Shown: in pieces, positions 175 through 27,425 of the stretch | How positions within the stretch are numbered: position 1 is the stretch's first letter | Layout of the letters: the number at the start of each line of letters is the position of its first letter | Origin: Acaryochloris thomasi RCC1774 | GTDB taxonomy: Bacteria; Cyanobacteriota; Cyanobacteriia; Thermosynechococcales; Thermosynechococcaceae | Assembly: GCF_003231495.1 (NCBI RefSeq) | Contig: NZ_PQWO01000006.1 | Span: forward strand, 180,001 to 212,000 | DNA length: 32,000 bases | Direction: 5' to 3' | Made by a program: the position numbers and the translations under genes | The notes under the pieces: generated by a model | Seen by the model: the letters and a program-made list of their open reading frames with translations, nothing else | The model's database searches: none | Told to the model about the DNA's origin: nothing

Positions 175-3100
175 CATCGTTTGACTACGGGCATCACTGG
201 GAAGAGCCTGTCCCTGTATTTTTGGTGCAGGATCAATCCAGTGACGGTGACGCTGGAACGGATAGGTCGGCAGCGGCACCCGGTAGCGCTGCTCATCAAC
301 ATAGAAGCCAGCCCAGTCCAGCTTGACACCAGCCTGCCAGAGCTGACCGACGGTTTCGAGTACAAAGCCAACGTCTGAAGCTTCCTCTTTAGGATGGCGA
401 ATGGAGGAAAGCACGACTCGCTCAGCTCCAGTCTGCTTGGAAGCCAGAGACTTCAGCATCCGTCCAGGACCAACTTCCAGAAGGACGCGCGTTTCATCCT
501 CTAACAGTTCCTTGACTCCAGCGGTGAAGCGCACCGTGGATCGGAGATGGTTCGCCCAGTAGCTAGGATCAGTAGCTTCTGCATCTGTAATCCAAGTTCC
601 CGTCACGTTTGAAATGTAGGGAATCTGAGGCGGATTGAGCTGCACCTGTCGCACCCGCTCAGTGAAAGGCTCCAGGATAGGATCCATCATGAAGGAGTGA
701 AAAGCGTGGGATGTGTGCAGGGTTCGGAAGTCAATACTTTCGTCTTCCAGCTTCTGCTTGAGAGCATCAATAGCCTCTGCAGGTCCGGCCACGGTACATA
801 GAGATGGAGCATTACTGGTCGCCAGAGCGAGCTGATCATTCAACAGTGCTTCGACTTCATCTTCTGGCAAGAAAACGGTCAGCATCGAGCCTGACGGCAG
901 GGACTGCATCAACCGGCCCCGTTCTGCAACGAGCGCCAACGCTTCTTCTAGCGAGAAGACGCCCGCTAAGCAAGCCGCCGTATATTCGCCAATGCTGTGG
1001 CCAATCATGGCCTGCGGCTGAATGCCCCAAGCCATCCAGAGCTGAGCAACGGCATACTCTGTGACAAAGAGCGCAGGCTGAGTGATGTTAGTTTGCTTCA
1101 GGAGCTCGGTGTTGGCTGCAGCATCTCCCGAGGTGTTGTAAATGATTTCGCGTAGATCTAGGCCAAGGTGCGGCTCTAGGATTTCTGCGCAGCGATCGAC
1201 TGTTTCTCTGTAAACGCGCTCTGTTTCGTAGAGATCGCGGCCCATATTGACGTATTGAGCGCCCTGTCCCGACAGCATAAAGACAATCGAAGGCTGATGG
1301 GTGTCGGGGGCGTAGATGGCTTCTTCGGGTTCCCATGTGGTTAGGGTTGCGATCGCATCCTCCCCACGTTCACAAACCACTGCTGTCCGATATTCGAACG
1401 CTCGCCGACCCACCTTTGATGTGTAGGCAACATCAGCTAGATTTTCAATCGGAGTCTCACGTAGATAGATAGCAAAATTTTCAACCGCCGCCGCCAGAGC
1501 TTCCTCTGTCTTGCCAGAAAGCACCAATAGCTGCCAGGAACGAGATTCTCCAGAGGCATCTATCTTGGGTGATTCTTCCAGTACCGCATGGGCATTGGTA
1601 CCCCCGACCCCGAACGAGCTAAGCCCTGCCCGACGTGGACCCCCATTCGTCTCCCAAGGCAGCAGCTCTTTGTTGATGTAAAAAGGGCTGTTCTCTAGAT
1701 CAAGCTGAGGATTCGGTGTTTCAAAGTTGACAACTGGCGGAATCTGCTTGTGCTTGAGCGCCAAGGTCGCCTTAATTAAACCCGCAACGCCTGCCGCTCG
1801 ATTCAGATGACCAATATTGCTTTTGATAGATCCCAGGGCACAGAATCCCTGTTGTTCGGTTTGCTCACGAAAGACTTTGGTTAAAGCTGCCACCTCAATG
1901 GGATCGCCCATTTGGGTTCCTGTACCGTGGGTCTCAATGTAGGAAATACTCTCAGGCTCAACTCCAGCCAGAGCGTGAGCCTCAGCAACTACATCTGCTT
2001 GACCATCAACGCTAGGGGCCGTGTAGCCAACCTTCAACGAGCCATCATTATTGAGCGCCGTACTTCTGATCACAGAATAAATATGATCACCGTCAGCCAA
2101 AGCGTCCTCAAGACGTTTTAGAACAACAATTCCAGCTCCATTACCAAGAACAGTTCCCTGCGCCTCAGCATCAAAGGGACGGCAGTGACCATCGGCTGAC
2201 TCAATCCAACCTTCCTCAAAGGGATGGCCTATTCGATGGGGCACATTAATGGTCACGCCTCCCGCCATCGCCATATCGCATTCACCACTGAGGAGGCTCT
2301 GGCAAGCTAAGTGTGTGGCAACTAAAGAAGTCGAGCAGGCCGTATTCACAGAGAATGCAGGCCCTTTCAGATCGAGCTTGTACGAGATCCGAGTGGCGAC
2401 AAAATCTTTATCGTTGGCAATCTCCACCGGACCCGCCCCCATCGACTGGATAAAGTCTGGACGAGACAGAAGATTATTGTGCCAATAGCTGCTGAACAGA
2501 GCACCAGCATAGACCCCAATTCTGCCAGGGAAGGTATCCGGATCGTAGCCTGCATTCTCTAGAGCTTCCCAAGCGCACTCCAACATGATTCGATGCTGGG
2601 GATCAAGCGCAGAAGCCTCCCGAGGACTGAATCCAAAGAAGTACTCATCGAACAGTTCGATATCGTCGATAATCGGGCCTGACTTGACATATCCCGGCTG
2701 GCTCAACAAAGTCGGATCAACGCCAGCGGCCAACAGCTCCTCGTCTGTAAAAGCAGTCAGCGACTCTACGCCATCACAAAGATTCTGCCAGAACTGCTCA
2801 ACAGTATCAGCCCCAGGGAAACGCCCTGCCAAGCCGACGATGGCAATGCCCTCCACGCTTGACGTAGCATCACCCTCGAACCCCTGGTTGCGGCGCTGCT
2901 TTTGGCGCTGCACTCTATCTTTGACAGCCTGAAAAGAAGATCCCGTCGATGGAGCCGCCGTTAAAAACTGCGCTAAAGAATGAACGGTCGGAGACTTAAA
3001 TAGCTCAATTGGGGAAAAGTCAGATTCAAAAAGGCTTGTCAACCGTTGATGGACTTGGGCGAGTAGCAGTGAACCGCCCCCAATTTCAAAGAAATTATCG

Positions 3101-4689
3101 TGAATCCCGACATCCGTTAGACCCAGTACATCCTGCCAGACCTCAAGAATCTGTTTTTCTACCGTAGTCTGAGGCGTAACGTTTGTGCTCCCCGCCGGCT
3201 TAACGGGTTGACGCGGCGTGTAGCTGATGGCCTCTGCCAGCTCAATCGAGGCAATCTCCTGCTCAGGACTTTCAACGATGCCGTTTAGTAGAGACTGATA
3301 GTTTCTGAGAAATGCCGCGATTGTCTCAGCTTCAAATAAATCCGTTTTGTATTCTAAAGCGCCGACTAGCCCGTCCTCTCCTTCCTCCCAGAAAAAAGAT
3401 AGGTCGAAGTCAGCATTTCTCTCAGGTGCTACCATCGCCTCAATCTGAACATCCGGCAGCTGAAAGGGCTGATTTTGGGTGTTGAGCAACGCAAACAGAA
3501 CCTTCGAGATTGAAGGGAGTAAAAGACCCTGAATGTCTCCCAATTGCTGAAACGGCACATCTTGATGCTTAAAGGCATCCAATGATGTCACGCGAACGCG
3601 ATCCAGCAGTTCCTTGAAGCTTGGATTGCCCGATAGCTGACACCGCAGGGGAATAATGTTGTTGAAGTACCCAATCAACTTCTGAATCTCTGGCCGATTG
3701 CGACCGGCAACTGGCGAGCAAACCGTGATATCTTCCTGGCCGACATATCGATACAGAAGCGTTTGGAATGCAGCTAAAAGAGTGACAAAAAGCGTTGTTC
3801 CTGAATCTTTTGCGAGAGACTCTAAAGCAGTCTTCAGAGAGGACGGCAGCGTCAGAGATTGTCGAGTCCCTGCCATTGCCGGGAAAGAGGGTTGTTCGTG
3901 GTCGACAGGTAAAATAACGGATGGACAGCCCTCTAGCTGCTGTTCCCAGTAAGATATTTGTGGCGCTAAAGCACCGGTGGCAATCCAGCTACGCTGCCAG
4001 TTCGAGAAATCAGCATATTGAATCGGCAGATCCGGGACCGTTGCAGGCTGTTTTATCTGATGGGCCTTGTAAATTTCTCCTAGCTCAGAGAAGAATAATC
4101 CCTCTGACCAGCCATCGAAAACAATGTGGTTAATGCATAGACTCAGTACGTTCTGGTCTTCATCCAGTTGAAGTAGCTTAGCTCTTAGAAGAGGTGCTTT
4201 GCCCAAGTCAAAGGGCCGATTGATGTTGTCCTGAACGAGCTGCTTGAGCCTTTCGTCCCGTTGCTCAGCCGACAACTCCCTTAAATCATAGGTTTCAAAA
4301 ATACCGGCAATACTGTCTGAGACAGCCTGTATCGGTGTCCCATCCACCTCTTTAAAGTAGGTTCTTAAAGCCTCATGACGATTCAATACCTCAATCAGGC
4401 TCTGCTCAAGAATTTGCGGATTCAAGGAGCCGTTGAGCCGAAAAGTGTAGGGAATATTGTAGGCACTATTTGACCCAATCTTAGCCAGGAACCAAAGACG
4501 CTCTTGAGCAAAGGAGAGCGGTAGATTCTGGTCCCGACTGACCGGTTCTAAGGGTGGAGCTTGCTTTTGCGCCTCCATAGCGGCTCGAATAGCTTCCCAG
4601 AAGTCCTGTCCTTTCTGGTCAGCGGATGAGTCATTAGTGCCAGGACTTTCAATATCGATTTTTTCTTGATGGTCTGATGCGTCTGGCAC
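1..4689 (-). CDS. Hybrid NRPS-PKS megasynthase, N-terminal 1563 codons (C-T-KS-AT-DH...), 3' end beyond the left window edge
   Basis: Not in the ORF track because there is no stop inside the window. My manual reverse-complement translation is open from 4689 to 1. The GTG at 4689 follows an in-frame TAG and a GAGGAG Shine-Dalgarno 7 nt upstream; an alternative ATG lies near 4577. Domain motifs read directly are listed in the sub-features below. Confidence 0.9.
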   Translation of the reverse strand, partial: MPDASDHQEKIDIESPGTNDSSADQKGQDFWEAIRAAMEAQKQAPPLEPVSRDQNLPLSFAQERLWFLAKIGSNSAYNIPYTFRLNGSLNPQILEQSLIEVLNRHEALRTYFKEVDGTPIQAVSDSIAGIFETYDLRELSAEQRDERLKQLVQDNINRPFDLGKAPLLRAKLLQLDEDQNVLSLCINHIVFDGWSEGLFFSELGEIYKAHQIKQPATVPDLPIQYADFSNWQRSWIATGALAPQISYWEQQLEGCPSVILPVDHEQPSFPAMAGTRQSLTLPSSLKTALESLAKDSGTTLFVTLLAAFQTLLYRYVGQEDITVCSPVAGRNRPEIQKLIGYFNNIIPLRCQLSGNPSFKELLDRVRVTSLDAFKHQDVPFQQLGDIQGLLLPSISKVLFALLNTQNQPFQLPDVQIEAMVAPERNADFDLSFFWEEGEDGLVGALEYKTDLFEAETIAAFLRNYQSLLNGIVESPEQEIASIELAEAISYTPRQPVKPAGSTNVTPQTTVEKQILEVWQDVLGLTDVGIHDNFFEIGGGSLLLAQVHQRLTSLFESDFSPIELFKSPTVHSLAQFLTAAPSTGSSFQAVKDRVQRQKQRRNQGFEGDATSSVEGIAIVGLAGRFPGADTVEQFWQNLCDGVESLTAFTDEELLAAGVDPTLLSQPGYVKSGPIIDDIELFDEYFFGFSPREASALDPQHRIMLECAWEALENAGYDPDTFPGRIGVYAGALFSSYWHNNLLSRPDFIQSMGAGPVEIANDKDFVATRISYKLDLKGPAFSVNTACSTSLVATHLACQSLLSGECDMAMAGGVTINVPHRIGHPFEEGWIESADGHCRPFDAEAQGTVLGNGAGIVVLKRLEDALADGDHIYSVIRSTALNNDGSLKVGYTAPSVDGQADVVAEAHALAGVEPESISYIETHGTGTQMGDPIEVAALTKVFREQTEQQGFCALGSIKSNIGHLNRAAGVAGLIKATLALKHKQIPPVVNFETPNPQLDLENSPFYINKELLPWETNGGPRRAGLSSFGVGGTNAHAVLEESPKIDASGESRSWQLLVLSGKTEEALAAAVENFAIYLRETPIENLADVAYTSKVGRRAFEYRTAVVCERGEDAIATLTTWEPEEAIYAPDTHQPSIVFMLSGQGAQYVNMGRDLYETERVYRETVDRCAEILEPHLGLDLREIIYNTSGDAAANTELLKQTNITQPALFVTEYAVAQLWMAWGIQPQAMIGHSIGEYTAACLAGVFSLEEALALVAERGRLMQSLPSGSMLTVFLPEDEVEALLNDQLALATSNAPSLCTVAGPAEAIDALKQKLEDESIDFRTLHTSHAFHSFMMDPILEPFTERVRQVQLNPPQIPYISNVTGTWITDAEATDPSYWANHLRSTVRFTAGVKELLEDETRVLLEVGPGRMLKSLASKQTGAERVVLSSIRHPKEEASDVGFVLETVGQLWQAGVKLDWAGFYVDEQRYRVPLPTYPFQRHRHWIDPAPKIQGQALPSDARSQTMHPLLGQRLHLAGMTNICFESQVSPAIPAFLNDHCLFETAVMPATGYLEMALAAGSSLI
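440..1290 (-). other. Acyltransferase (AT) domain, malonyl-type signature
   Basis: FMLSGQGAQY, GHSIGEYTAAC (985-1002, Ser codon 994-996), HTSHAFHS (HAFH at 697-708, the motif associated with malonyl-CoA specificity), VLLEVGPG at the end. Confidence 0.9.
1349..1356. repeat. HIP1 octamer GCGATCGC
   Basis: Exact match read in the sequence. Confidence 0.95.
1574..2856 (-). other. Ketosynthase (KS) domain
   Basis: IAIVGLAGRFPGA start. Active-site NTACSTSLVATHLACQSLLSGECDMA (Cys codon 2335-2337), then ETHGTGTQMGDPIE, SIKSNIGHLNRAAGVAG, and SSFGVGGTNAHAVLEE at the end. Confidence 0.92.
2965..3165 (-). other. Thiolation / carrier (T) domain directly after the C domain (approximate borders)
   Basis: EKQILEVWQDVLGLTDVGIHDNFFEIGGGSLLLAQVHQRL. 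The Ser codon of the GGGSL attachment motif is at 3070-3072. Only about 60 residues separate it from the end of the C domain. Confidence 0.75.
3250..4560 (-). other. NRPS condensation (C) domain of the megasynthase (approximate borders)
   Basis: Translated motifs in canonical order: LPLSFAQERLWFL (C1), NHIVFDGWS (C3, HHxxxDG with first His replaced by Asn, at 4111-4131), QYADFSNWQ (C4), IGYFNNIIPLRC (C5), HQDVPFQQL (C6). Confidence 0.8.
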
Positions 4690-4770
4690 TGGGTCACTCC
4701 TCTACGGGCTGAGGTTCACAATCTGATTAATTATCTGGAGGAAATACCGTTTCTATGCAGGACGGTACGA

Positions 4771-5022
4771 CTAAGCGCTTTGCTTGCTTTTCAGCAATTC
4801 TTCAATATTGGCAACGGTTCTAAAGTTATCAAGGTTGATCTCACCCATATCAAACTGAACGCCAAACTCATCCTGTAGCTGAAAGATGAGATTCATCGCG
4901 TTCACTGAGTCCAGTCCGAGCGCAAAAATATCGCTATCGTCTGCGATTTGATCCTCTGTTGTATTTGGTAGAATAGATAGAACAACGGAGTAAATCTTGG
5001 GCTTAATTTCTTCAGCAGTCAT
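4771..5022 (-). CDS. Free-standing acyl/aryl carrier protein
   Basis: The track ORF 4771-5034 starts at TTG; the first ATG (5022) gives 83 aa beginning MTAEEIKPKIY. Phosphopantetheine motif LGLDSVNAMNL (Ser codon 4906-4908). Size and acidic helical character are typical of ACP/ArCP. Confidence 0.85.
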   Translation of the reverse strand: MTAEEIKPKIYSVVLSILPNTTEDQIADDSDIFALGLDSVNAMNLIFQLQDEFGVQFDMGEINLDNFRTVANIEELLKSKQSA

Positions 5023-5114
5023 TTTATAAATCAACTTTTATAAGCGTTACAACCAGGAAATCAATTGTCTGACTAGATCTATCTTTGTGATGGTAGAGAA
5101 GTTACTCCCGAAAC

Positions 5115-5238: not shown

Positions 5239-6762
5239 CTAGATCAAGTCCTTACGTAATATTTTACCCAGAGCGCTCTTAGGAATTTCATCTCTGAACT
5301 CAACAATCCTCGGAGTCTTGAAGTCAGCTAGCTTATCTTGGCAGTAACTGATGATGCTAGACTCCTCACATTCTCCCTCAGCAACTACTACGGCTTTGAT
5401 CACCTCCCCTGCATAGGGGCGCTTAGTCCCCACGACCACAACTTCTTTCACATTGGGGTGTGTCGCTAAGAGATTCTCAATTTCAAAGGGATCGACCTTA
5501 TGGCCACCCGTATCAATAAAGATTTTCTTGCGGCCCGTTATGAAGATGTAGCCGTCTTTATCTTTAGTCCCTAGGTCTGACGTGAAATAATGACCTTCTC
5601 GAAAGACCTCTTTGTTAACCTCTGGGGCATCATGATATCCCTGGGTTAGCGTGTTACTCTTGATGGCCAGCTCACCCGTCACGCCGGGTTGCGCCTCGTT
5701 ACCGTCATCACCCATAACTTTGATCTCGACATCTTGCATGGGTTGACCCACAGAGTCGTACCGATGCTCAGGAGATGCCTCCATATTAATTGCGACTGAT
5801 CCCGCCTCTGTACAGCCATAAAGCTGACGAATGGGGAGTCCAAATCGAAGCAAGAATTTGTCAAAAATATCTTTTGCTAGGAAGTTGCCTGCCGAGATAC
5901 ACAGCCGCAGAGTGGATAGATCAATCGTCGGATCGGGAGGCGTAGAGGCCAAAATGCTGTATACGTAAGGCACACTCGGCAAGATCGAGATCTTTTCTGT
6001 TTTGATGAGCTCCAACACTCTAGGCCGACGAAAAACAAAAGGAATTTCAGAAACGACCCCATCCTTTGAATAGGGTTCAAGAATCACCAGTTTGGCTCCT
6101 GAACAAGTTGCTGCTAGCAAGCATTCACCAAACCCGTAGGCGTGATACATCGGCACGCTACAGAAAATACTGTCTTCCATGGTGACGCCTAGCGTTTCAA
6201 CGCAGCTTCTCGCCTGGGAGAAAACGTTCACCTGAGTTCTGCTGACTCTCTTCGGTTTACCGGTGGAACCAGAAGTGTATTGATATAAGACGGCTCCCTC
6301 ATAAGAATCAGTTGATGGATCCTCGGTGGAGGCACCCCGTACGACATCTTCGAATGCGACACCACAGGGAGGGTTGTTCCCAACCACAACTAGCTTTATC
6401 TGTCGGTCGCTTTTATCAATAAGTGCTTGGCAAGTCTCAGCACGGGCTGCATCAGTGATAATGAGCTTCGTCTGGCTGTCTTCAATGTAATGGTTGAGTT
6501 CGCTTTCTTTGAAGGATGGGTTTAAAAGCAATGCGATCGCATGTAGGCGAGAGACCGCGAAAAAGCTGATTAAGAACTCGGGACAATTCGGTAAAACCAA
6601 GGCGATACAATCTGATTCGCTGATTCCCAGAGAACCTAGTCCATTCGCAAGTCTAAGAACTATCTCACGAAGAGCTTGATAAGTGAGTCTTGATTCACCG
6701 CAAACAACGGCATCATTATCTGGATAACTGCTCGCCGTTTTATCCAGCATTTGATTCAACAT
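5239..6762 (-). CDS. Stand-alone adenylate-forming ligase (aryl/acyl-AMP or -carrier-protein ligase)
   Basis: 507 aa with ANL-superfamily core motifs YTSGSTGKPKRV, YGCTEAG, FTSDLGTKDKDGYIFITGRKK and PKSALGKILRKDL. No fused carrier or C domain. It sits between the chorismatase and the carrier protein. Confidence 0.85.
   Translation of the reverse strand: MLNQMLDKTASSYPDNDAVVCGESRLTYQALREIVLRLANGLGSLGISESDCIALVLPNCPEFLISFFAVSRLHAIALLLNPSFKESELNHYIEDSQTKLIITDAARAETCQALIDKSDRQIKLVVVGNNPPCGVAFEDVVRGASTEDPSTDSYEGAVLYQYTSGSTGKPKRVSRTQVNVFSQARSCVETLGVTMEDSIFCSVPMYHAYGFGECLLAATCSGAKLVILEPYSKDGVVSEIPFVFRRPRVLELIKTEKISILPSVPYVYSILASTPPDPTIDLSTLRLCISAGNFLAKDIFDKFLLRFGLPIRQLYGCTEAGSVAINMEASPEHRYDSVGQPMQDVEIKVMGDDGNEAQPGVTGELAIKSNTLTQGYHDAPEVNKEVFREGHYFTSDLGTKDKDGYIFITGRKKIFIDTGGHKVDPFEIENLLATHPNVKEVVVVGTKRPYAGEVIKAVVVAEGECEESSIISYCQDKLADFKTPRIVEFRDEIPKSALGKILRKDLI
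6533..6540. repeat. HIP1 octamer GCGATCGC
   Basis: Exact match read in the sequence. Confidence 0.95.
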
Positions 6763-7035: not shown

Positions 7036-8031
7036 CTACCTTTCTTCGATAATGGCTTCAATTTCAATATCTAATTCAAATCGGCAAATATCTGATTTAA
7101 GGTAGATAATGTGATCGTCTTTAGTCGCCATGATCAGCTTTGGGAAAAGCTCTCGAACATGTGCCGCGTCTTCTGCTCGCCTTATATAAACCTTAAAAAT
7201 TCTGTCATGCTTGACGGGATCGGGCATCAGGTTACCGTAGCTCTGACGCTCAAACAAAAGCCCCATCTCCTCAAAGACTAGGCTCATATTGTCAACTGTC
7301 GTATACAGTTGCTCCGTCATGTCTGATAGCGTGACTGACTCATGGCTTTTGATACTAGCCGTTCCCGAGAGGAACCCAACTTGCTTGCTGTCACGCATAA
7401 GAACAGTCCCCCTCGCAAAGCTAGGAGAGCGAGGACCGTAACGCTTCGGATATTTATATGCCGCAATCTGCTCGGGGTTTTCGACATGTTTGCCGTCCTC
7501 TTTACCCGCGACGAAGTACATAACAAGCTTGTTGTCATCGATTCCAACGGCAGAGGCTGCGGGCAGTTTGACATCGAACCCCTCTCCGTAAAAAGCCTCA
7601 AAGGCGAGCGAACGTGCTTTACAGAAAGAGCGATAATTCTCTAGAGAAGAGGTCTCTTCATTGATATATGGAACGTAGTGCCAGACCCGGTATAAATTCC
7701 AGTTTTTGGTCAGCTCCAAGAAATCCATATAAACCTCGTAGGTTGCTTTCTCGAGAGGGAATTCAACCTCTCGTGTCAGCGCTCCGATGAAATAATCATC
7801 ACTCTCTAAAATATGAAAGCCAAATTTTTGATAAACGCGTCCAGGACAAGAAAAAATTCGTTCTCGACTTTCTTCACCCAGTACCGGGATTTTGACGTGG
7901 ACGTCAATGCTCTCTGCCGTTTGTACACACTTGGTCTCACCTCGTCCAAAGAGGACCTGAAGCGTCTTCTGCTGATAAAGCGGCTTGAGTTCATCAGACT
8001 CTTTAGATTCGATGGATGGTTGTGTGACCAT
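7036..8031 (-). CDS. FkbO/Hyg5/XanB2-family chorismatase (chorismate to hydroxybenzoate or dihydroxycyclohexadiene carboxylate)
   Basis: 331 aa. Motifs I associate with this family from memory: YRVWHYVPYIN, NYRSFCKARSLAF, KLPAASAVG, VENPEQIAAYKYPKRYGPRSPSFARG, LSGTASIKSHES, SDICRFELDIEIEA (RidA/YjgF-like C-terminal part). Not verified by HMM. Confidence 0.7.
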   Translation of the reverse strand: MVTQPSIESKESDELKPLYQQKTLQVLFGRGETKCVQTAESIDVHVKIPVLGEESRERIFSCPGRVYQKFGFHILESDDYFIGALTREVEFPLEKATYEVYMDFLELTKNWNLYRVWHYVPYINEETSSLENYRSFCKARSLAFEAFYGEGFDVKLPAASAVGIDDNKLVMYFVAGKEDGKHVENPEQIAAYKYPKRYGPRSPSFARGTVLMRDSKQVGFLSGTASIKSHESVTLSDMTEQLYTTVDNMSLVFEEMGLLFERQSYGNLMPDPVKHDRIFKVYIRRAEDAAHVRELFPKLIMATKDDHIIYLKSDICRFELDIEIEAIIEER

Positions 8032-8980
8032 AATTGCTCCCCAGAATTAATAGCTTAGCGCTTCATAGAAAAACAGCTAAAATATGAAAAAAGATAAAAT
8101 GCTTGTAGAGGCCTCTGATGAATCCCCATCACGGCTTAAGAGTGAATCCATTGATGGTGCCGACCCTTTATCCAAGGTGTAGGTGCTCCCTAGGTTTATT
8201 CTCCGAAGCAACGACCGGCGTGAGCAGTCGGTGCCTACAAAATTCATCGCATAATTCAAAAACTGTAAATTTTAAGAACTATGAAATGGTAGGTGCAAAT
8301 AGCCTTACCTGAAGTGGCGTTTAGATGTTGATTTATCAAAACTAATTTAACCCATCTCTCCTAGTGTTGCCAACTCTTCCGTAGCGTATCTACAAGTAAT
8401 CGCGCTTTCTTGGCGACGCTCACTATTTTGTTCTGCAGAGTCGCAAAGAATCGAAGACTCCTGCTCAAAACCGTTGCTAGGACTCCAGATTGTTTAACAG
8501 ATTGCAATGTAAGAGAGTCAATCATGCCGAGCTATCTCTCAATAACGCACTTTTTATAACCTAGGCTCCAGGCTCAGTAGCCCGGAAATTGCATTGTGCA
8601 AACTGGCGTACTGCTTGTTATTGTCAAAGATGCTGCTCTTTGAATCTGTGTCTTCAACTACTAAACTTTCCATCACAATACTTGAATTATTTCCTTGGGA
8701 AAAATATATATGTCAGCGATACTCTGAGCTGCTAGCCGGATGGTAAAGGCTGGCTCAGCTCTCTATATTTGTGCCTTCAAAGCTGTTTTGGCTTCGTAGA
8801 GAATCCGGGATTTAGTTGTGAAAATGGAAATTTATTAGAGAGATTCTTTTTGAAAATAACGAAAAAACCTGTGGGGAATTCATCTTCTAGACGGCTATGG
8901 TCAATGGAGTGTTGAGTGTGAGAAAGGTAGATCTCTGCTAACCTATATCTCTCTTTACCATCTGCCCTGAATCGATCGCA

Positions 8981-9778
8981 TCATCGATTACTCACCCTCA
9001 GATGAGCTCGGCTAACGACTGTCTTGGTGATTAGCTGCCGCGCTGCAAGCCAGACGAAGGGAGGAATCGTTGTTGCATATCGTCGCCATAGTCGCCCCGG
9101 CTCTTGATATAGACGATATGCCCATTCCATTCCCAATGTTCTTATCCACTGAGGCGCATACTTTTGTAGCCCGGCATAAACGGGGAAGACGCCACCTAGT
9201 CCCACCATGGTGGCGTTGATCCTGCCTCGATGCTGAGCAATCCATTTTTCCTGTTTAGGGCAGCCTAAAGATAGGAAAAGTAAGCCTGCTTCTGTGCCAT
9301 TAATTCTTTCTACGATTTTTTGGTCTTCTTGATCTGTCAGAGGCCGAAAGGGCAAGGACTCCATACCGATAATGTCTAAGCTGGGATATTCACTTTCCAA
9401 TCGCTGACGCATTTTTGCAAGAATCTTTGTCTCAGAACCCAGGAAAAATATGCCGACTTTTTGCTGCTGTGCCTCTTCACAGAGTTTCTTGAGCAGATCC
9501 ATGCCAGCAACTCTTTCTTGGCTGTATGCCCCTAGAAATTTCAGCATCCAGACCAGCGGCATTCCATCTGGGGTGACCAAATCAGCTGAATGTAAAATCT
9601 GTTTGAAGGATGGATCCCAATACGCTTCCATCAGCATGTGAACATTAGCCACACAAATGGTCTTGCTAATATTCTGTTTTGCCCAGGCAATGATCTGAGT
9701 TGCACTTTGCTTTAGAGATAGTGCATTGACATTCGTTCCAATAACCTGGATCTTATCAAGGGTTCTAATATGATTCAT
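8981..9778 (-). CDS. WecB/TagA/CpsF-family glycosyltransferase (WecG/TagA-like)
   Basis: 265 aa with family-typical VTPDGMPLVWM, GIFFLGS and SLGCPKQEKWI motifs. Confidence 0.8.
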   Translation of the reverse strand: MNHIRTLDKIQVIGTNVNALSLKQSATQIIAWAKQNISKTICVANVHMLMEAYWDPSFKQILHSADLVTPDGMPLVWMLKFLGAYSQERVAGMDLLKKLCEEAQQQKVGIFFLGSETKILAKMRQRLESEYPSLDIIGMESLPFRPLTDQEDQKIVERINGTEAGLLFLSLGCPKQEKWIAQHRGRINATMVGLGGVFPVYAGLQKYAPQWIRTLGMEWAYRLYQEPGRLWRRYATTIPPFVWLAARQLITKTVVSRAHLRVSNR

Positions 9779-12766: not shown

Positions 12767-12769
12767 GTG

Positions 12770-13954
12770 ATGCGATATCGACGCTTCGGGCGCACTGAGC
12801 TACAAATGCCTGTCTTTTCCTGTGGCGGAATGCGCTACCAGTATTCTTGGAGAGATGATCAGGTAGAAGGTATCACCCAAGCCAGTCAAGACAATCTTGA
12901 GGCAACGATTCGCCGCGCTCTTGATTTGGGCATCTATCACATTGAGACAGCGAGGGGATATGGTACCTCAGAAGTTCAGTTGGGTCGCATCTTGCCTCAG
13001 CTACCGCGTGAGCCATTGATTATTCAAACAAAGGTTAGCCCTAAGCCAGATGCCGAGGAGTTCCGGCACACGTTTGAGCAGTCTTTGGCCAATCTTCGGC
13101 TTGATTATGTCGATCTGTTGGGGCTGCACGGTATCAATACGCCTGAAATTTTAGAGTACAGTCTTCGACCTGGGGGCTGTCTTGATATCGCCCGTCAGCT
13201 ACAGGCCCAGGGTAAGGTCCGCTTCATCGGCTTTTCGACCCATGGACCCACTCAGGTGATCGTAGATGCGATCGCAACTAACCAATTTGACTATGTAAAC
13301 CTGCACTGGTACTACATCAATCAACATAACTGGCCTGCTTTGATGGCTGCCGCTGAGCGCGATATGGGTGTATTCATCATTAGCCCCTCCAATAAAGGAG
13401 GACTTCTCTATAAACCCTCACAAACACTGCTAGACCTCTGCTTTCCCCTTAGCCCAATGGTGTTTAACGATCTGTTTTGCCTAAGTCATCCACAGGTTCA
13501 TACCCTCAGTCTTGGGGCTGCTCACGCAACAGACTTTGACGAGCATCTCAAGGCCCTTCCCCTTCTAGAGCAGGCTACGCAATATTTACCCCCCATTATT
13601 GAACGGTTGGAAGATGAGGCTATTGAAGTACTAGGAGAAGACTGGGTCAAAAACTGGCATAGAGGACTTCCCGAGCCAGACGAGACGCCGGGCAACCTTA
13701 ACATCCCTGTGATTCTGTGGCTGCGGAACCTTGCGATCGCATATGACATGGTTGAATATGCCAAGATGCGATATAACTTGCTTAGTAACGGGGGACATTG
13801 GTTCCCTGGGAACACAGCCGCCCAAGTGCAAAACCTCGATCTGAATAACTGCTTGAGCGCTAGTCCCTACCAATCTCAGATCCCTGAACTACTAGCAGAT
13901 GCTCACCACCGACTCGGCGACAAACCGCTCCAACGTTTGTCGAAAAGTGAGTGA
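12770..13954 (+). CDS. Aldo/keto reductase family oxidoreductase
   Basis: The track ORF starts at GTG 12767 and an ATG follows at 12770. MRYRRFGRTELQMPVFSCGGMRY, HIETARGYGTSE and DLLGLHGIN resemble AKR N-terminal and active-site blocks. 394 aa. Confidence 0.75.
   Translation: MRYRRFGRTELQMPVFSCGGMRYQYSWRDDQVEGITQASQDNLEATIRRALDLGIYHIETARGYGTSEVQLGRILPQLPREPLIIQTKVSPKPDAEEFRHTFEQSLANLRLDYVDLLGLHGINTPEILEYSLRPGGCLDIARQLQAQGKVRFIGFSTHGPTQVIVDAIATNQFDYVNLHWYYINQHNWPALMAAAERDMGVFIISPSNKGGLLYKPSQTLLDLCFPLSPMVFNDLFCLSHPQVHTLSLGAAHATDFDEHLKALPLLEQATQYLPPIIERLEDEAIEVLGEDWVKNWHRGLPEPDETPGNLNIPVILWLRNLAIAYDMVEYAKMRYNLLSNGGHWFPGNTAAQVQNLDLNNCLSASPYQSQIPELLADAHHRLGDKPLQRLSKSE
13268..13275. repeat. HIP1 octamer GCGATCGC
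   Basis: Exact match read in the sequence. Confidence 0.95.
13733..13740. repeat. HIP1 octamer GCGATCGC
   Basis: Exact match read in the sequence. Confidence 0.95.
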
Positions 13955-14802
13955 TTGGAGTGCCTTTGCTCAAATAGTAGCCCACCCCAAATTCTGTAAT
14001 AGCTGCAACCGGCCTAGGCGCTCTCAAAATTACGATCTAGCCCTAAGGCGTTATGACTTTGATTTTGAAGGCCAACGACTGCTAAACACCGCCTACGCCG
14101 TATAGGGTGCAAACATTGCGGTTCACAGGAGTCTATGATTAAATATATGACAACCTGTTAAGTTGTTTTAAATTAAGCTGCGCTATCATTCCACGCTACA
14201 TTTTCAGTGATGGTGGAATAGCTGGCTAAAATTTATTCAGCGTGGGTTGGGGGTCCTACACTGATAGCATTCTTTTTTAGGGAGTTCAGTCAAATTGAGC
14301 GGTTGCTGTAGAGAATCGGGGGGTTCTAAACGGCACCGAATCTTTATCACTGTGAAGCTAAGAGACGCTTAGTTTCTAGACTTCTGTCTTCTGGCTGTTA
14401 AGCAGCGTTATGAGGTCTGACTATCTGCCTTAGAGTCTTCTATTGACTCAGTCAGATTGTTCGGTTCACGGGTGCTTTTGGGATTGGAGACCTAATCAAA
14501 CTTAAGAAACGAAGTCTGGGCACATTTTGCCTAAAGCTATCGTCCTTGTGATTCATACTCAACTCCAGGAGTCGCATGCAGGGAGGTCCATTGGGTTTGT
14601 TGTGCGTCCGAGAAGCACGCCGATCTAGAACTAAATGTCTTTTTCCTGTTTAGAAAGTAAAATTAGCTTATTGTCGTTTTTTCGGCCTAATATTGGAGAC
14701 TTCCGTCTGCATAAGTCGGGCCTTCTCCATATCTATATTCGAGCCATCTACCGTTCGAATCATTCTGTTACTTCAAGTAAATGACATTGAGTTTGAACCC
14801 GT

Positions 14803-15993
14803 ATGAAGATTGCTGTAATTGGTGCAAAGGGTTTACCTGCTCAGCAGGGGGGGATAGAACAGCACTGTGCTGAAATATGTGCGCGTATGGCTGCTTGGGG
14901 GCACGAAGTTGACCTCTTTGCCCGACCGTCTTACAACGGGACATCTTGGTTTCATCATGACATTTACCATGGTGTGAGGGTTATCACGTTGCCGAGCTTG
15001 CCCCTCCGAGGAATTGACGCATTCTTGAATTCGGCGCTAGCGGCCATCATGACCTTGAGACGACCGTACGACGTTGTTTTTTTTCATGCCCTGGGACCTT
15101 CTCTGTTCTCCTGGATTCCCAAGCTAGTCACCACCTCTAAAGTCATTTCTGTTTGCCATGGCTTGGATTGGCAGAGGGCTAAGTGGGGTCGGTTTTCAAG
15201 TTTGATGCTACGTCTTGGTGAAAAGACCGCTGCTCACTGCGCAGACGATATCATCGTTGTGTCTCATGCTCTGCAGTCATATTTCTCGCAAGCTCATGCT
15301 AGAGAAACAACCTATATTCCCAACGCACCGGCAAAGTATGCTGACTCAGATCCCAACTTTGCCTATGGACAATCTCTAGGGTTAACGGCAAATAAGTACG
15401 TTTTGTTTCTGGGCAGAATAGTGCCTGAGAAATGTCCAGATCTATTGCTTGAGGCCTTTAGCAAACTGCAGCCAGCCGGCTGGAAACTAGTATTTGTCGG
15501 TGGAGGTAGCGACACCGAAGAATTCTCAACAGATTTGCAAAAACGTGCTACGGGTCGGATGGATATCGTTTTTACCGGTCAGCTAAAGGGCAAGTTTCTA
15601 GCTGAAATAGTTAGAGGATCAGGTTTATTTGCCTTGCCTTCTGATTTAGAGGGTTTGCCCCTAGCGATGCTGGAAGCGATGCGAGAAGGTATCCCAGTTC
15701 TTGCCAGTGATATCCTTGTTCATCAGCAATTACTGGGGCGGGATCGGGGTGTTTTGTTTAAAGCTGGAGATCTTGAATCATGTATCGAAGCTTTGGACTG
15801 GTCGATTAACCATTCTGGCAATTTAGCGGAAATGGCCCACGCAGCTCAGAAACACATTCAGAGACATTACGATTGGGACGGCATCACAATTGAAACGCTG
15901 AACCTATGCTTTGCCCTCCTTGGAAGCAGCCCAGATGTTTCTCTGCCCATTATTTCTACTCAAGGTAAAAAATACTTTAGACATAGAATGTAG
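14803..15993 (+). CDS. Glycosyltransferase family 4 (GT-B, retaining type)
   Basis: 396 aa. N-terminus MKIAVIGAKGLPAQQGGIEQHCAEICARMAAWGHEV (DUF1972-like GT4 start). C-terminal EGLPLAMLEAM E-x7-E motif. Confidence 0.8.
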   Translation: MKIAVIGAKGLPAQQGGIEQHCAEICARMAAWGHEVDLFARPSYNGTSWFHHDIYHGVRVITLPSLPLRGIDAFLNSALAAIMTLRRPYDVVFFHALGPSLFSWIPKLVTTSKVISVCHGLDWQRAKWGRFSSLMLRLGEKTAAHCADDIIVVSHALQSYFSQAHARETTYIPNAPAKYADSDPNFAYGQSLGLTANKYVLFLGRIVPEKCPDLLLEAFSKLQPAGWKLVFVGGGSDTEEFSTDLQKRATGRMDIVFTGQLKGKFLAEIVRGSGLFALPSDLEGLPLAMLEAMREGIPVLASDILVHQQLLGRDRGVLFKAGDLESCIEALDWSINHSGNLAEMAHAAQKHIQRHYDWDGITIETLNLCFALLGSSPDVSLPIISTQGKKYFRHRM

Positions 15994-16116
15994 ATCTAAA
16001 TCGTGTCTCTACCAATGGGTGAGAAGTAACGAGTTAAATATCCCTACTTTCGATATTAAGTGGCTAGTATAGGTATTAGGTATTTTAATTTTTAAGTGCA
16101 GCAGTAAGGTATCTCC

Positions 16117-18228
16117 ATGGATCAGAGTTTATCCCGACTTCCTCTTGTCTTTAGTCGGCATCGATGGTCAGCTTTAGCAGCTTTTTCCGCCGTTATGTGT
16201 GGTCTTTGCCTATACGTGGTTTTTGCGCCTCGTTTATACACCTCTAAGGTGCGCCTGATTTTGGATGGCACGCCAAGCACGAGCGTCTCGGATTTTGGTA
16301 GCACGATTGCTCAACAGCCCGGTAATGGCGCTCTGGCGAACCAAGAAGAAATTGTCTCTTCGAAACGTCTTCTTGAGAGAGCTCTGCAGTCCTATCGTCA
16401 GCAGTGGGATGATCCAGTAGATATTCCACTATCAGTTGGAGAACTCAAGCAAAGCCTCCAGACGGGTATTGTTCCTGGTACCGACATCTTTCAACTGCAG
16501 TATACAAGCTCTGACCCCGAGTTAGCTTCTAGAATGCTCAACTCCATTGCTCAAACAGTTGTGCAAGAAAATACGGAAACAATTCAGGCTGAAGCTAAAT
16601 CAGCTCGTGAATTCTTAGAAGGGCAAATTCCTCAGCGACGTCAAGAGCTGCTTCAGGTTGAAGCAAGAATGAGCAAATTCAAGCAAGAATATGGTTACGT
16701 GACGCTGAGTGCTGAAGGGAATAATAACGAGGCAAATCAGCTATTGGTTAATAGCTATGCCCAGTTAGAAGGTCAAATTCGTGATTTGACGTCACAAATT
16801 CAAGAAGTTGATGCGCGCAATCTGTCTTTGAGTACTTTGACGAATGCAGGCAGCATTAATAATACCTATACTTCGGTTCGAACGGGGCAAGATCCCGAAC
16901 TGCAGAACTTAAAGTCAGCCGTGACAAATTTAGAATCTCAGGTCGCTGCGCGTCGGACTGAACTTACAGATAGCCATCCAATCGTTATTCAGCTTGTTCA
17001 AGAACTGGATGCTGCTCGCACACTATATAATCAGCGACTATCACAGTTGGGAGGCGGTTCAAGTGTTAACATCGCGCCTGAAAGCGCACGGGTAGGTCAA
17101 GACTTATCTGTGCAGTTGATTCAGGGGAAAATTGAGCGTCTGTCTCTCCAAGAAAGATTAGAGGCCGCTCGAGGTAGCATGAAGCAGCTAGAGTCGCGCC
17201 GTCAGCAATTTCCCATCCTAGAGCAGTGGTTCACCCAGATGGATCGACGCAGGGAGGCTCTGTTCAACTCTATCCAGTTGCTAGAGCGCAAGTTGGATGA
17301 AGTTCGAGTGGCTGAGGCACAACTGCTGAGCAACTTCAGGATTCTTGATCTTTCTGAACCCAGCGGCAAACCCAGTGATCCAAATATTCCTGTGGTGCTT
17401 ATCTTGGGTACGCTAGCGGGCGCGGTTCTTTCAATCGGTACGGTAATACTGCTGGAGGCTCTAAATAGAAAGCTTTATAGCGCTGATGAAATTGAGGAGC
17501 TGGTGGAGTTGCCTGTCTTAAGTACATTGCCTCGGCTCTCGAAAAACACTCTCAATTTAGGCGAGCCAGCAAGCTTTTACGAAAATTCAGCTATTTTAGA
17601 AGCGTACCGAGCGTTGTTCAAAGCATTGGAATTTAGAGGTTTGGAAGAGTTCCATACTCTGGTTGTTAGTAGTGCTATTTCAGGGGAAGGTAAATCAGTT
17701 GTAACGTCCTATCTTGCTGCCGTTGCGGCTATGCTCTCTCGCCGAACATTAATTATTGATGCCGATCTGCGACGACCGACGATCCATAAGCAGTTCCAAT
17801 TACCGAATAAATCAGGCTTATCAGACATCCTTTCAGGTGACGTAAGTCTTGAAAGTGCTGCACAGTCAACATCGATTGATAACTTATCCGTAGTCACGGC
17901 CGGTAGTTCCTGCGTTCTCCCCTCCCGCTTTTTTGAATCAGACGGCATGAAGATTTTGCTTGAAGAAGCGCGGAGTAGCTACGATCTCGTTATTGTTGAT
18001 ACGCCTCCTGTCACGAGCTGCGTTGATGCTATGGCGGTTAGCAGCGAAGGATATCCTCTTCTGCTCATTGCTCGACCAAATGTGACAGAGAAAGATCTCT
18101 TAAAGCGATCGGCAGCGGAGTTGATAGAGCACAATATCAATGTTTTGGGTGTTGCTGTGAATGATGGGATCCCCAAGACTGACAGATATTATCAATACAG
18201 GCTAGAGAGCTATCAAGAGACAGCGTAG
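16117..18228 (+). CDS. Polysaccharide co-polymerase / BY-tyrosine autokinase (Wzc/GumC-like, PCP-2a)
   Basis: 703 aa. N-terminal TM segment, a long coiled-coil periplasmic region and a second TM segment (VVLILGTLAGAVLSIGTVILL). Walker A SGEGKS, Walker A' LIIDADLRRP, Walker B DLVIVDTPP. C-terminal Tyr-containing tail DRYYQYRLESYQETA. Confidence 0.9.
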   Translation: MDQSLSRLPLVFSRHRWSALAAFSAVMCGLCLYVVFAPRLYTSKVRLILDGTPSTSVSDFGSTIAQQPGNGALANQEEIVSSKRLLERALQSYRQQWDDPVDIPLSVGELKQSLQTGIVPGTDIFQLQYTSSDPELASRMLNSIAQTVVQENTETIQAEAKSAREFLEGQIPQRRQELLQVEARMSKFKQEYGYVTLSAEGNNNEANQLLVNSYAQLEGQIRDLTSQIQEVDARNLSLSTLTNAGSINNTYTSVRTGQDPELQNLKSAVTNLESQVAARRTELTDSHPIVIQLVQELDAARTLYNQRLSQLGGGSSVNIAPESARVGQDLSVQLIQGKIERLSLQERLEAARGSMKQLESRRQQFPILEQWFTQMDRRREALFNSIQLLERKLDEVRVAEAQLLSNFRILDLSEPSGKPSDPNIPVVLILGTLAGAVLSIGTVILLEALNRKLYSADEIEELVELPVLSTLPRLSKNTLNLGEPASFYENSAILEAYRALFKALEFRGLEEFHTLVVSSAISGEGKSVVTSYLAAVAAMLSRRTLIIDADLRRPTIHKQFQLPNKSGLSDILSGDVSLESAAQSTSIDNLSVVTAGSSCVLPSRFFESDGMKILLEEARSSYDLVIVDTPPVTSCVDAMAVSSEGYPLLLIARPNVTEKDLLKRSAAELIEHNINVLGVAVNDGIPKTDRYYQYRLESYQETA

Positions 18229-18289
18229 TAGCTTTATTGAAGTTGTTTCGTCCTCAATAGGAGTGAGTTTGGCTGTTGCTTAAATCAGG

Positions 18290-19795
18290 ATGAGGGATGC
18301 TATTAGGGGAGATTTTTTTGTGTTACCCGTTGTCGTAAAGCGTTTCTTGAATCCAGCGTTCTGGGTCGTTGTCAGTGTTGTTATTGCGGGCTTGCTGGTT
18401 GGCGTGATTGCTGGCACTTCCCCTTCTTTGCTTGTTGCTGCGCTTGCGGCTCCCTTTCTGCTAGCCTATTTTTTTTGGGATTTTGAGCGAGCTGTCATTG
18501 GCTTATTGCTCATACGCAGTTCATTAGATACTTTCTCTGAGGGAGGAATTCCTGCTGCTTATGCCATAGGTTTAGACGCACTGACGCTGATTTATATCAC
18601 TGTGCAATTGCTGACGGGGCGTCCTGTCAAAACTGACTGGTTTTGGTGGTGCTTGGCAGGGTGGGTCGCATTCCATGGCTTATGGTTGATTTTTCTGCCT
18701 CTAGGAGGATTAGGATTCGATGCTGATCCTTCTCTTCTAAGGATCAGCCTGCGGGAGTGGGTTCGCTGGTTTACGCTTGCGATGGTTTACTTGCTTGTCA
18801 TGCAGCTCAAGGACAGAGTGCATCCGAGCAAAGCACTCTCTCTCATGTTTTTTTCCTTGATTCCGCCTGTTACCTTCGGTCTAGTCCAGTTACTTGCGCC
18901 ATCAAGTTTACCTGAAGAGCTAGTTAGGACGGGGCGAGGAGGGCAGTCTGCCCAACTGGCTGCACAGGGAATCGATATCTCTCGGATCAATGGGACATTT
19001 GGTCACCCAAATACTTTTGCCCTTTATCTAATACTATTTATTGCTTTAGCCTGGTGGAAAACAAACCAATCAAAAAAACGCTGGCCTTGGTTAGCGCTCA
19101 TGTTTTTACTAACGTTTGTTCTTGTCGGGACCAAGGCTTTAGGCGCATTAATAATGTTCTCTATCTTTATCCTGATTCAAGCCTTGACAAAGATCGATCC
19201 GCCGAAACTTTTCGCAAGTGGAATTTTTCTAGTCATTGCGATAGCCTTGTTCGGAAGTACAGAATTTGGGCAAGCCCGTTTACTAGAAATTTCTGAAACG
19301 CCATTACTCAATCCAGAGATTGATGTATCGAGGGCCATTCTGATGCGAGGGAATAGCTTTAACTGGAGAATAGCTCAATGGGTAGATGTTTTAGGTGCAT
19401 GGCGAGAACACCCATTTTTGGGTTTCGGCCTGGATTTAAGTCAATTTATCCCTAAGGAAAATAATTTAGCCCCTCATAACGACTATATCAGAGCGTTAGT
19501 TGAGACGGGATTGCTGGGGCTAGCTGGTTTGCTTACGTTCCTAGCTCTACAGCTCACACGTTTATTAGCTTTACTCAAAGGCTCTCAAGGGCAATCTCAG
19601 CGTAACTTATGCTCGGGATTATTTGCGATTGGTGTCGCCATATGTGTTGGCATGCTTGCCGACAATGTATTGAGTGCTACGCCTTTCTGGCTATATTTCT
19701 GGTCTGTAATGGCGATGGCGGGCTGGGACTGGGGAGACCCACAAAATCCTCAAGATGCTGGTGATATAGATTCGCGAACAATAGAGAAGAGCTAA
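18290..19795 (+). CDS. O-antigen ligase/polymerase family membrane protein (Wzy-like)
   Basis: 501 aa and highly hydrophobic with many predicted TM segments. The Wzy_C-type block NLAPHNDYIRALVETGLLGLAG is present. It sits directly after the Wzc-like gene. Confidence 0.7.
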   Translation: MRDAIRGDFFVLPVVVKRFLNPAFWVVVSVVIAGLLVGVIAGTSPSLLVAALAAPFLLAYFFWDFERAVIGLLLIRSSLDTFSEGGIPAAYAIGLDALTLIYITVQLLTGRPVKTDWFWWCLAGWVAFHGLWLIFLPLGGLGFDADPSLLRISLREWVRWFTLAMVYLLVMQLKDRVHPSKALSLMFFSLIPPVTFGLVQLLAPSSLPEELVRTGRGGQSAQLAAQGIDISRINGTFGHPNTFALYLILFIALAWWKTNQSKKRWPWLALMFLLTFVLVGTKALGALIMFSIFILIQALTKIDPPKLFASGIFLVIAIALFGSTEFGQARLLEISETPLLNPEIDVSRAILMRGNSFNWRIAQWVDVLGAWREHPFLGFGLDLSQFIPKENNLAPHNDYIRALVETGLLGLAGLLTFLALQLTRLLALLKGSQGQSQRNLCSGLFAIGVAICVGMLADNVLSATPFWLYFWSVMAMAGWDWGDPQNPQDAGDIDSRTIEKS

Positions 19796-19802
19796 GCTGA
19801 CG

Positions 19803-20591: not shown

Positions 20592-20629
20592 CGTTCTTTT
20601 TTTTCATGCTGTGTCATGGATTTTGTGTT

Positions 20630-20637
20630 GCGATCGC
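20630..20637. repeat. HIP1 octamer GCGATCGC
   Basis: Exact match read in the sequence, in the spacer between the first sulfotransferase and the first GT2. Confidence 0.95.
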
Positions 20638-20693
20638 AAGCAATATTCCGATTTTTTCTATAGCTTATTTTCGCTAAATCCTAGTTGATTGGT

Positions 20694-21659: not shown

Positions 21660-21696
21660 ACTAAAATGGTCTATATATCACGATTAGTCTCAAGAG

Positions 21697-22716: not shown

Positions 22717-22803
22717 AAGTCTTTTCTAATCTGCATGAATCTGAACGGACTCTGCAGCTTGAGGTACTTGCGTCGCCAATGATGTCCAAATTTTGCTTAG
22801 CCT

Positions 22804-23913: not shown

Positions 23914-24048
23914 ACTTCACATAGATAAGCTGTAGATACCGAAAAGCTCTATGAGTGGCTAAAGTATTGCGTCGGGCCTTTGTTGTAGAGAGGCAATCCT
24001 AAGCTTTATCTTTTTAGTATGCTGTTTCTCCTTTATACCTCATTCTAA

Positions 24049-24846: not shown

Positions 24847-24851
24847 TCCAA

Positions 24852-27282: not shown

Positions 27283-27425
27283 AATAACGGCGGGTAAAGG
27301 TCTACCTAGTTTTCTCAAACTTATGAATAAGTAGCATAGCAAACATGATGATGGCTGACTTTCTTGGCCCCATCTATTGATTATCCAGAAATATTTCTCT
27401 CTTCGTCTCAATACAGGTATGACTC

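Follow-up and report, generated by a model that had tools for sequence, protein, structure and literature searches.

The 32,000-nucleotide window analysed here (positions 180,001 to 212,000 of contig NZ_PQWO01000006.1, assembly GCF_003231495.1, Acaryochloris thomasi RCC1774) holds on its minus strand the start of a megasynthase gene whose product opens with a condensation (C) domain and a thiolation (T) domain, lacks an adenylation (A) domain and continues into a ketosynthase (KS). Judging from sequence comparison, we slightly favour the reading that this C-T didomain serves as an aryl-relay loading unit for a polyketide synthase (PKS), in which 3-hydroxybenzoate (3-HBA) held on a free carrier protein (CP) would pass via C to T and from there to the KS as starter. 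Its starting points are the domain order, the missing A domain, the intact catalytic residues of T and KS, the four-part cassette of chorismatase, ligase, CP and C-T protein, and the distinct A-less clade to which the C domain belongs.

In the proposed route, the chorismatase would convert chorismate to a hydroxybenzoate, most likely 3-HBA, which a 507-residue ANL (AMP-forming) ligase would adenylate and thioesterify to the free CP. The A-less C domain would then bind the aroyl-S-CP at its donor site and shift the aroyl group onto the phosphopantetheine thiol carried by the T domain fused to it, so that the step from CP to T would be a transthioesterification without an amino acid. The KS would accept the aroyl group from T as a starter and extend it with malonate, given the HAFH motif of the acyltransferase (AT), and reduction and dehydration would follow extension. 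The identity of the acid, catalysis of the transfer by the C domain and the direction from CP through T to KS are the parts of this scheme that we infer.

The reading was favoured because the C clade is A-less throughout, because the order of chorismatase, ligase, CP and a C-T protein is conserved in four related loci (L004, L001, L082 and L083), because two further loci (L084 and L090) carry a C-T gene overlapping a PKS gene with ligase and CP upstream, because flanks of up to 10 kb around the cassettes hold no amino-acid A domain, and because the ligase is of the acyl/aryl-CoA-ligase type and not of the A-domain type of nonribosomal peptide synthetases (NRPSs). An earlier description of this DNA, made from the letters alone and called here the original prediction, had named aryl transfer between carriers as an alternative, and the A-less clade, the cassettes and the aryl-type ligase make it the best-supported reading. 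Its first proposal, loading of the acceptor carrier in trans, is not favoured by the same three lines of evidence if it is taken as aminoacylation.

Domain order of the megasynthase and its upstream cassette

Domains were called by a Pfam scan of the window proteins, with NCBIfam and PDB matches as the other profiles. The megasynthase gene (minus strand, as are all features of this section unless stated) begins at a GTG codon (4689-4687), preceded after a 7-nucleotide spacer by a Shine-Dalgarno-like GAGGAG read from the sequence (4697-4702), and runs for 1563 codons (translated from window positions 4689 to 1) past the left edge of the window, beyond which the remainder of the cluster lies. 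The C domain (residues 54-486, nt 3232-4530, E-value 3.8e-92) covers profile positions 3-448 of 456 (446/456). It is followed by a T domain of the peptidyl carrier protein (PCP) type with the core GGGS (residues 513-576, nt 2962-3153; PP-binding E-value 1.3e-11, with PCP matches in the PDB), a KS with an intact Cys-His-His triad in the motifs TACSTS, HGTGT and NIGH (residues 614-990, nt 1720-2850), an AT with the motifs GHSIGE and HAFH, the latter a malonyl-type signature (residues 1136-1413, nt 451-1284), and the N-terminus of a PKS dehydratase (DH; residues 1506-1562, nt 1-174; PKS_DH_N profile positions 1-57 of 103).

The motif strings quoted in the original prediction were all recovered from this translation, namely C1 LPLSFAQERLWFL (residues 56-68, nt 4486-4524), C3 NHIVFDG (residues 187-193, nt 4111-4131; as NHIVFDGWS residues 187-195, nt 4105-4131), C4 QYADFSNWQ (residues 224-232), C5 IGYFNNIIPLRC (residues 339-350), C6 HQDVPFQQL (residues 375-383) and the carrier core FFEIGGGSLLLAQ (residues 533-545, containing FFEIGGGSL). 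The serine that a functional T domain would carry for modification is present as Ser540 of the GGGS core (nt 3070-3072). The predicted spacing was right in order and somewhat off in distance: the carrier core does come after C, at about 47 residues past the end of C and not about 60, and the KS does follow T, across a 37-residue linker and not immediately. A 115-residue open reading frame (ORF) on the plus strand at 2585-2932, antisense to the T-KS linker region, has no Pfam match and is almost certainly spurious.

The spacer between C and T is just 26 residues long and that between T and KS 37, which leaves no room for a concealed A domain, and Pfam detected no AMP-binding domain in the 1563 residues; the A domain that a canonical C-A-T layout places between C and T is absent. 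The domain scan with hidden Markov models that had been proposed for this protein therefore brought up no overlooked A domain, and an A-less C-T pair does head the megasynthase as predicted. Pfam also found no A domain elsewhere in the window, and neither an A domain nor a hydrolase shuttle is present in the 27 kb upstream. With KS domains placed after PCPs in cyanobacterial NRPS-PKS hybrids, the window KS shares about 60% identity; as a clue to its substrate this similarity was discarded as uninformative, since a wide range of hybrid KS domains reach about 60%, among them those downstream of C-A-T modules.

Chorismatase, ligase and CP are encoded on the same strand as the megasynthase, directly upstream of its start, and the 507-residue ligase and free carrier to which the original prediction had pointed are both confirmed. 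The CP gene (4771-5034, from the ORF list and matches to the acyl carrier protein (ACP) family) encodes an ACP-like LGLDS motif; its ORF comprises 87 residues from a TTG codon at 5034, and by comparison with orthologs an ATG start at 5022 (83 residues) is likelier. The stand-alone ligase (5239-6762; Pfam AMP-binding and AMP-binding_C) has acyl/aryl-CoA and aryl-AMP ligases as its nearest NCBIfam and PDB relatives (150-227 bits), with NRPS A domains well below its best matches (e.g. LgrA, 156 bits), and is predicted from these similarities to be a hydroxybenzoate:carrier-protein ligase.

The cluster opens with the gene for a 331-residue chorismatase of the FkbO/Hyg5 family (7036-8031; Pfam FkbO_Hyg5-like_N), of which the original prediction had made no mention. 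It scores 173 bits against TIGR04444, under the 325-bit cutoff of that model, and has Hyg5 as its best PDB match (5ag3, 133 bits, vs 98 bits for FkbO, 4bps). The 3-HBA-forming CH-Hyg5 (CH-II) subfamily of chorismatases is marked by two glycines and one cysteine (PMC7170507). The window enzyme has equivalents of Hyg5 Gly240, Cys327 and the catalytic Glu334, and an alanine at the position of Gly173 (SAVG, not TGIG). Its product from chorismate is likely, though not certain, to be 3-HBA, and with its alanine at the Gly173 position the enzyme may represent a cyanobacterial subgroup.

The clade of A-less condensation domains

The C-T part used as a query retrieved hundreds of mostly cyanobacterial proteins at 40-59% identity over about 95% of its length, with domain sets of C and PP-binding, with or without a thioesterase (TE). 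When the best 120 matches were rescanned for domains, 80 proved to be C-T-TE, 12 C-T-C, 10 C-T and 5 R-C-T, where R is a reductase-like domain. For the C domain alone, ordinary C-A-T modules of genome contigs were about equally near (40-46% identity). A-less C-T-C proteins of about 1045 residues in Nostoc and Aerosakkonema NRPS loci (L012, L028 and L064) are another sort of A-less module and fall outside the clade studied here.

A neighbour-joining tree, the only tree method used, was built from 255 C domains sampled by similarity to the window protein and including 123 with a downstream A domain. Phylogenetic placement had been proposed with the original prediction; the tree puts the window C domain in a clade of 98 members that are all A-less, with 0/123 of the C-A domains inside it. 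In 98 of 100 bootstraps the group around the window comprised 96 or more of the 99 A-less domains and no canonical one. The window C domain scored 560 bits on a profile of the clade from which its own 11-member subclade had been left out, vs 510 bits on a canonical C profile (+50).

The clade also carries a signature. At about nine positions conserved to 86% or more in canonical C domains, the clade has a different residue, and the window matches the clade; examples are G324C (99% Gly in canonical domains, 94% Cys in the clade), the change of FVNT to FNN(I/L) including T345I, that of PFE to PFQ (E381Q), and K427D. The replaced positions (residues 302, 324, 336, 341, 345, 381, 390, 395, 427 and 459; nt ~3310-3790, minus strand) cluster in motifs C4-C7, and a lost C:A interface or an altered active site are possible meanings of the replacements. 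Conservation within the clade is high at Cys324 and Tyr341, which are specific to it (94-96%), and the Asp and the Trp-Ser of C3 are nearly invariant. Judged from its sequence, the window C domain does not come from a module with a recent loss of the A domain.

The nearest PDB structures are C domains of the peptide-bond-forming LCL type (5u89, Txo1/Txo2 of teixobactin synthesis, and TycC; 270-283 bits), with which the window domain shares a complete fold and recognisable motifs C1-C7; it differs from them in having no A domain after it, in belonging to a separate clade and in the change of about nine near-invariant positions. It is distant from the heterocyclisation (Cy) and epimerisation (E) domains in the PDB comparison. 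Assignment as a starter (lipo-initiation) C domain was rejected on the score of CDA-C1 (4jn3, 45 bits, vs 270-283 for LCL). An X-type or inactive domain, which would have undermined the original prediction, was likewise rejected, with the glycopeptide X domain 4tx2 at 144 bits vs 270-283 for LCL and the second His, the Asp and the Gly of C3 all present.

As the original prediction had stated, C3 of the window has Asn187 in place of the first His and retains the second (His188), together with Asp192 and Gly193. The same NHIVFDG occurs in L004, a 7-kb contig of an uncultured cyanobacterium metagenome-assembled genome that ends within the T domain and is the only close ortholog from the scan of genome contigs; its C-T part is 78% identical to that of the window and its gene order is the same, with identities of 93% for the chorismatase, 90% for the ligase and 84% for CP. 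Since L004 was assembled independently, a sequencing error in the Asn codon was ruled out. An exact look-up of the CP and ligase sequences returned no record, and a metagenome scan with the AT-DH part returned nothing above 59% identity. HH stands in P0001, which is next closest at 59%, and in every C-T-TE protein of the window's subclade, so the change from His to Asn is recent and has been maintained.

Across the A-less domains, 15/99 have HQxxxDG and 3/99 NHxxxDG, and all 123 of the 123 canonical domains have HH. These departures reflect only about four independent events. In a subclade of C-T-TE proteins (P0018 of locus L085 and 14 others), the second, presumed catalytic His is replaced by Gln. 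That 18 of 99 clade members vs none of 123 canonical domains have left HH would be expected if activation of an amine is not the task of these C domains. The HQ-type proteins still reside in full cassettes of chorismate-using enzyme, ligase and CP. A link of NH to the feeding of a KS was considered and dropped, as a PKS gene follows both the NH protein P0017 and its HH sister P0014, which leaves no clean correlation. In itself the NH variant is of minor importance, and we regard the change from His to Asn at the first C3 position as tolerated variation in a motif under relaxed constraint in the clade. Taken from its sequences, the A-less clade is robust, signature-bearing and generically annotated, with HHxxxDG histidines that are dispensable in some members.

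Gene neighbourhoods and known systems

Ten gene contexts of the family were examined with flanks of up to 10 kb. Ligase and CP occur in 8/10 of them and a chorismate-using enzyme in 8/10, and an amino-acid A domain was found in the flanks of none except L087, where a C-T-TE protein with a docking domain ends an NRPS-PKS line. In L004, L001, L082 and L083 the order chorismatase, ligase, CP and C-T-TE (or C-T and onward) matches that of the window, and the C-T proteins of the latter three, which are 46-50% identical to the window, fall within its own subclade. The cassettes of L001 (2043-7989), L082 (5258-11059) and L083 (5638-12349) are minimal, consisting of chorismatase, ligase, CP and C-T-TE only. 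In L083 (Halomicronema hongdechloris C2206) a DDE transposase (7036-8082) stands between the chorismatase and a shortened ligase of 468 residues, and a second transposase lies just downstream; this cassette may be decaying or mobile.

Other members combine the same core with further enzymes. L085, of the HQ subclade, has chorismatase, ligase, a luciferase-like monooxygenase, CP, chorismate lyase, 3-deoxy-D-arabino-heptulosonate 7-phosphate (DAHP) synthase and C-T-TE, and L089 has ligase, CP, a radical-SAM enzyme, a glycosyltransferase and C-T-TE. In L086 (Scytonema sp. NUACC26) the protein P0090 (8001-10925) is an R-C-T protein with an N-terminal reductase-like domain, one of five similar proteins, and is surrounded by chorismate lyase, several sulfotransferases and adenosine phosphosulfate (APS) kinase; neither a ligase nor a CP lies in the surrounding 8 kb. 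Against the hydroxybenzoate cassettes the window ligase is 55-65% identical and its CP 48-59%, which indicates that ligase, CP and C-T move as a unit.

Feeding of a PKS was seen among the A-less C-T relatives only in L084 and L090, in the form of split genes. Both loci have ligase and CP (L090 also chorismate lyase) and tailoring genes, with glycosyltransferase, radical-SAM and sulfotransferase genes upstream of a lone C-T gene of 611-613 residues that is followed by an overlapping PKS gene for KS, AT and ketoreductase (KR) domains (L084 2981-9116, L090 5233-11734). This arrangement is the split counterpart of the C-T-KS fusion in the window. No other fused C-T-KS at the head of a protein was present among the best 120 full-length matches, which showed C-A-T-KS or KS-AT-T-C orders only. 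In L095 a C-T-KS segment lies in the interior of a long NRPS-PKS protein; this case differs from that of the window and is outside the studied clade.

A-less C-T modules are already known. For the relay, the precedent is the ambigol system of Symphyonema bifilamentata (formerly Fischerella ambigua 108b), with Ab6, Ab8 and Ab9, in which the C domain of Ab9 (C-PCP-TE) reportedly takes 3-chloro-4-hydroxybenzoate from Ab8, a free carrier, and transfers it to the PCP of Ab9. The locus L088 (Pelatocladus) contains a P450 with a halogenase, chorismate lyase, ligase, DAHP synthase, CP, C-T-TE and a second halogenase-like gene, an order which we take to be that of ab5-ab10 of the ambigol cluster. Its C-T-TE protein P0028 is 42% identical to the C-T part of the window, and its ligase and CP are 55% and 48% identical to those of the window; the members of the P0028 cluster and its homologs bear generic names only, none of them Ab9.

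The window shares with the ambigol system, as that system is said to be built, a chorismate-derived hydroxybenzoate, a lone ligase, a free CP and an N-terminal A-less C domain fused to a PCP. It has the other Ab9-like traits as well, that is, an N-terminal C followed by a carrier, membership in the A-less clade, adjacent ligase and CP genes and a chorismate-using enzyme. The differences are that the window has a chorismatase (predicted to give 3-HBA) in place of a chorismate lyase (4-HBA), shows no halogenase or other gene for on-carrier tailoring, and has NH where ambigol-type C3 motifs have HH. The C-terminal TE of Ab9-like proteins is absent as well: T is followed by KS-AT-DH, and in the proposed reading the aryl group would be extended rather than released.

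Aryl-capping siderophore systems (EntE/EntB/EntF, DhbE/DhbB/DhbF and MxcE/MxcF/MxcG) resemble the window in that an aryl-AMP ligase loads a free carrier and an N-terminal C domain takes the aroyl donor. There, an A domain follows C and an amide is formed with aminoacyl-S-PCP, whereas the window lacks the A domain, and its C domain scores low on the aryl-capping models (MxcG 122 bits, EntF 62 bits).

Polyketides primed by chorismatase products include rapamycin and FK506 (FkbO), the Hyg5/BC325 systems, cuevaene, and xanthomonadin with a 3-HBA:ACP ligase (PMC7170507). The window agrees with these pathways in a cyclic acid supplied by chorismatase, activation by an ANL enzyme and use as a polyketide starter, and differs in the NRPS-type C-PCP pair that is interposed. 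To our knowledge, the chorismatase-primed systems load through a CoA-ligase-type domain and ACP, or through a type II ligase and ACP, with no condensation domain. Literature searches on cyanobacterial chorismatase-primed polyketides and on an aplysiatoxin cluster gave no relevant result, and the thought of an aplysiatoxin-like product, suggested by a 3-hydroxyphenyl terminus, was dropped as pure speculation. New in the window are the direct fusion of C-T with the KS that begins a modular PKS, for which only the split L084 and L090 are comparable, and the pairing of this C-T unit with a chorismatase; for the family, the recognition of a robust clade with its own signature is new as well.

Alternative readings, wider locus and significance

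Several points weigh against the relay. A direct hand-off from CP to KS would be simpler, and no tailoring gene is visible that would justify two carriers. In the minimal cassettes a relay followed by hydrolysis would be futile, returning the free acid, and the family may therefore have a function beyond relay. The tie to Ab9 is drawn from the synteny of L088 with the ab order and not from the sequence of Ab9, and the KS of the window is of the ordinary post-PCP type of NRPS-PKS hybrids. The C domain is about 44% identical to peptide-bond-forming LCL domains, and with its retained His188, Asp and Gly amide formation remains within its means; there could also be a gene for an A domain or shuttle enzyme in the part of the cluster past the left edge.

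The last points lead to a reading in which T would be aminoacylated by an A domain (or an A-T protein with a shuttle) outside the window, C would form an amide between aroyl-S-CP and aminoacyl-S-T as in aryl-capped siderophore synthetases, and the KS would extend an N-aroyl-aminoacyl starter. The LCL affinity (270-283 bits) with His188, Asp192 and Gly193, the kind of KS found after PCPs in hybrids, and the extension of the cluster past the window edge all agree with it. A documented A-less C-T precedent exists in LgnD C1-T1, whose T domain is loaded with an amino acid through the type II thioesterase LgnA (PMC8748450). As in LgnD, the window has C directly followed by T and its substrate must come from another carrier; unlike LgnD/LgnA, it shows no such hydrolase, and the partner cassette is an aryl-acid ligase with CP. 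The entire C clade is A-less, one of its subclades lacks the catalytic His, and neither an A domain nor a hydrolase shuttle lies in the 27 kb upstream; in addition, the 8/10 contexts with ligase and CP have no amino-acid A domain in their flanks, and several are short, self-contained and TE-ended. We consider amino-acid loading rather unlikely on this balance.

Two further readings keep the aryl substrate. In one, a single ligase would load hydroxybenzoate on both CP and T, and C would join the two through the phenolic OH. The PKS would start from the resulting depside, which the TE of the C-T-TE relatives would release or oligomerise. This would remove the apparent futility of the chorismatase-ligase-CP-C-T-TE cassettes; ester-forming C domains are known, and a weakly nucleophilic phenol as acceptor could explain the signature residues of the clade. 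CP and T, however, match different families, the former ACP-like (LGLDS) and the latter PCP-like (GGGS), which makes one ligase for both less likely, and the ambigol system reportedly releases a monomeric acid; depside formation is thus quite improbable. In the other, C would be a non-catalytic scaffold for docking or gatekeeping, with the ligase loading T directly or the aroyl group passing from CP to T or KS without the C active site. The variable His dyad (NH in the window, HQ in 15 relatives) would fit such a role, and the X domain of glycopeptide synthesis is a known partner-recruiting precedent (4tx2, 144 bits). The fold is nevertheless complete (Pfam positions 3-448 of 456), catalytic LCL domains match the window far better than the X domain does, and the near-invariant Asp and Trp-Ser, together with the strongly conserved, clade-specific Cys324 and Tyr341 (94-96%), point to selection on a defined function, so that we regard a scaffold without catalysis as distinctly improbable.

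The aryl relay is therefore the reading we retain. A broader proposal, to which we give somewhat less than an even chance on the sequences at hand, is that the A-less clade constitutes a separate C subtype for thiol-to-thiol acyl relay ('transthiolation') that would link free-standing ligase/CP cassettes, where tailoring of the aryl acids can take place, to TE, reductase or PKS and could work without the catalytic His, and that the window would offer the first case in which a hydroxybenzoate made by a chorismatase primes a modular PKS by way of such a C-PCP adaptor joined to the first KS.

To the right of the chorismatase, the window contains a WecG-type glycosyltransferase gene (8981-9778, minus strand), a molybdopterin oxidoreductase gene, and then an exopolysaccharide-type locus on the plus strand (12767-31722) with GT4/GT2 glycosyltransferases, a Wzy-like polymerase, a tyrosine-kinase-like P-loop protein and two sulfotransferases. 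The G+C content of the exopolysaccharide locus is 0.37-0.46 vs 0.51-0.54 for the PKS part, and this contrast may reflect a different origin of the biosynthetic cluster.

If the relay reading is true, C domains recurrently move acyl groups between carriers, beyond the formation of amides and esters, and this role would span more than 100 cyanobacterial protein clusters labelled only "condensation domain-containing protein". Ligase, CP and C-T would then form a portable adaptor that primes PKSs with aromatic acids, and genome-mining tools should not predict an amino acid for such modules. The signature residues of the clade and the natural HQ and NH variants are ready targets for testing the role of the HHxxxDG histidines. 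For A. thomasi itself, the relay would predict that the locus makes an undescribed cyanobacterial polyketide with a 3-hydroxyphenyl head group.

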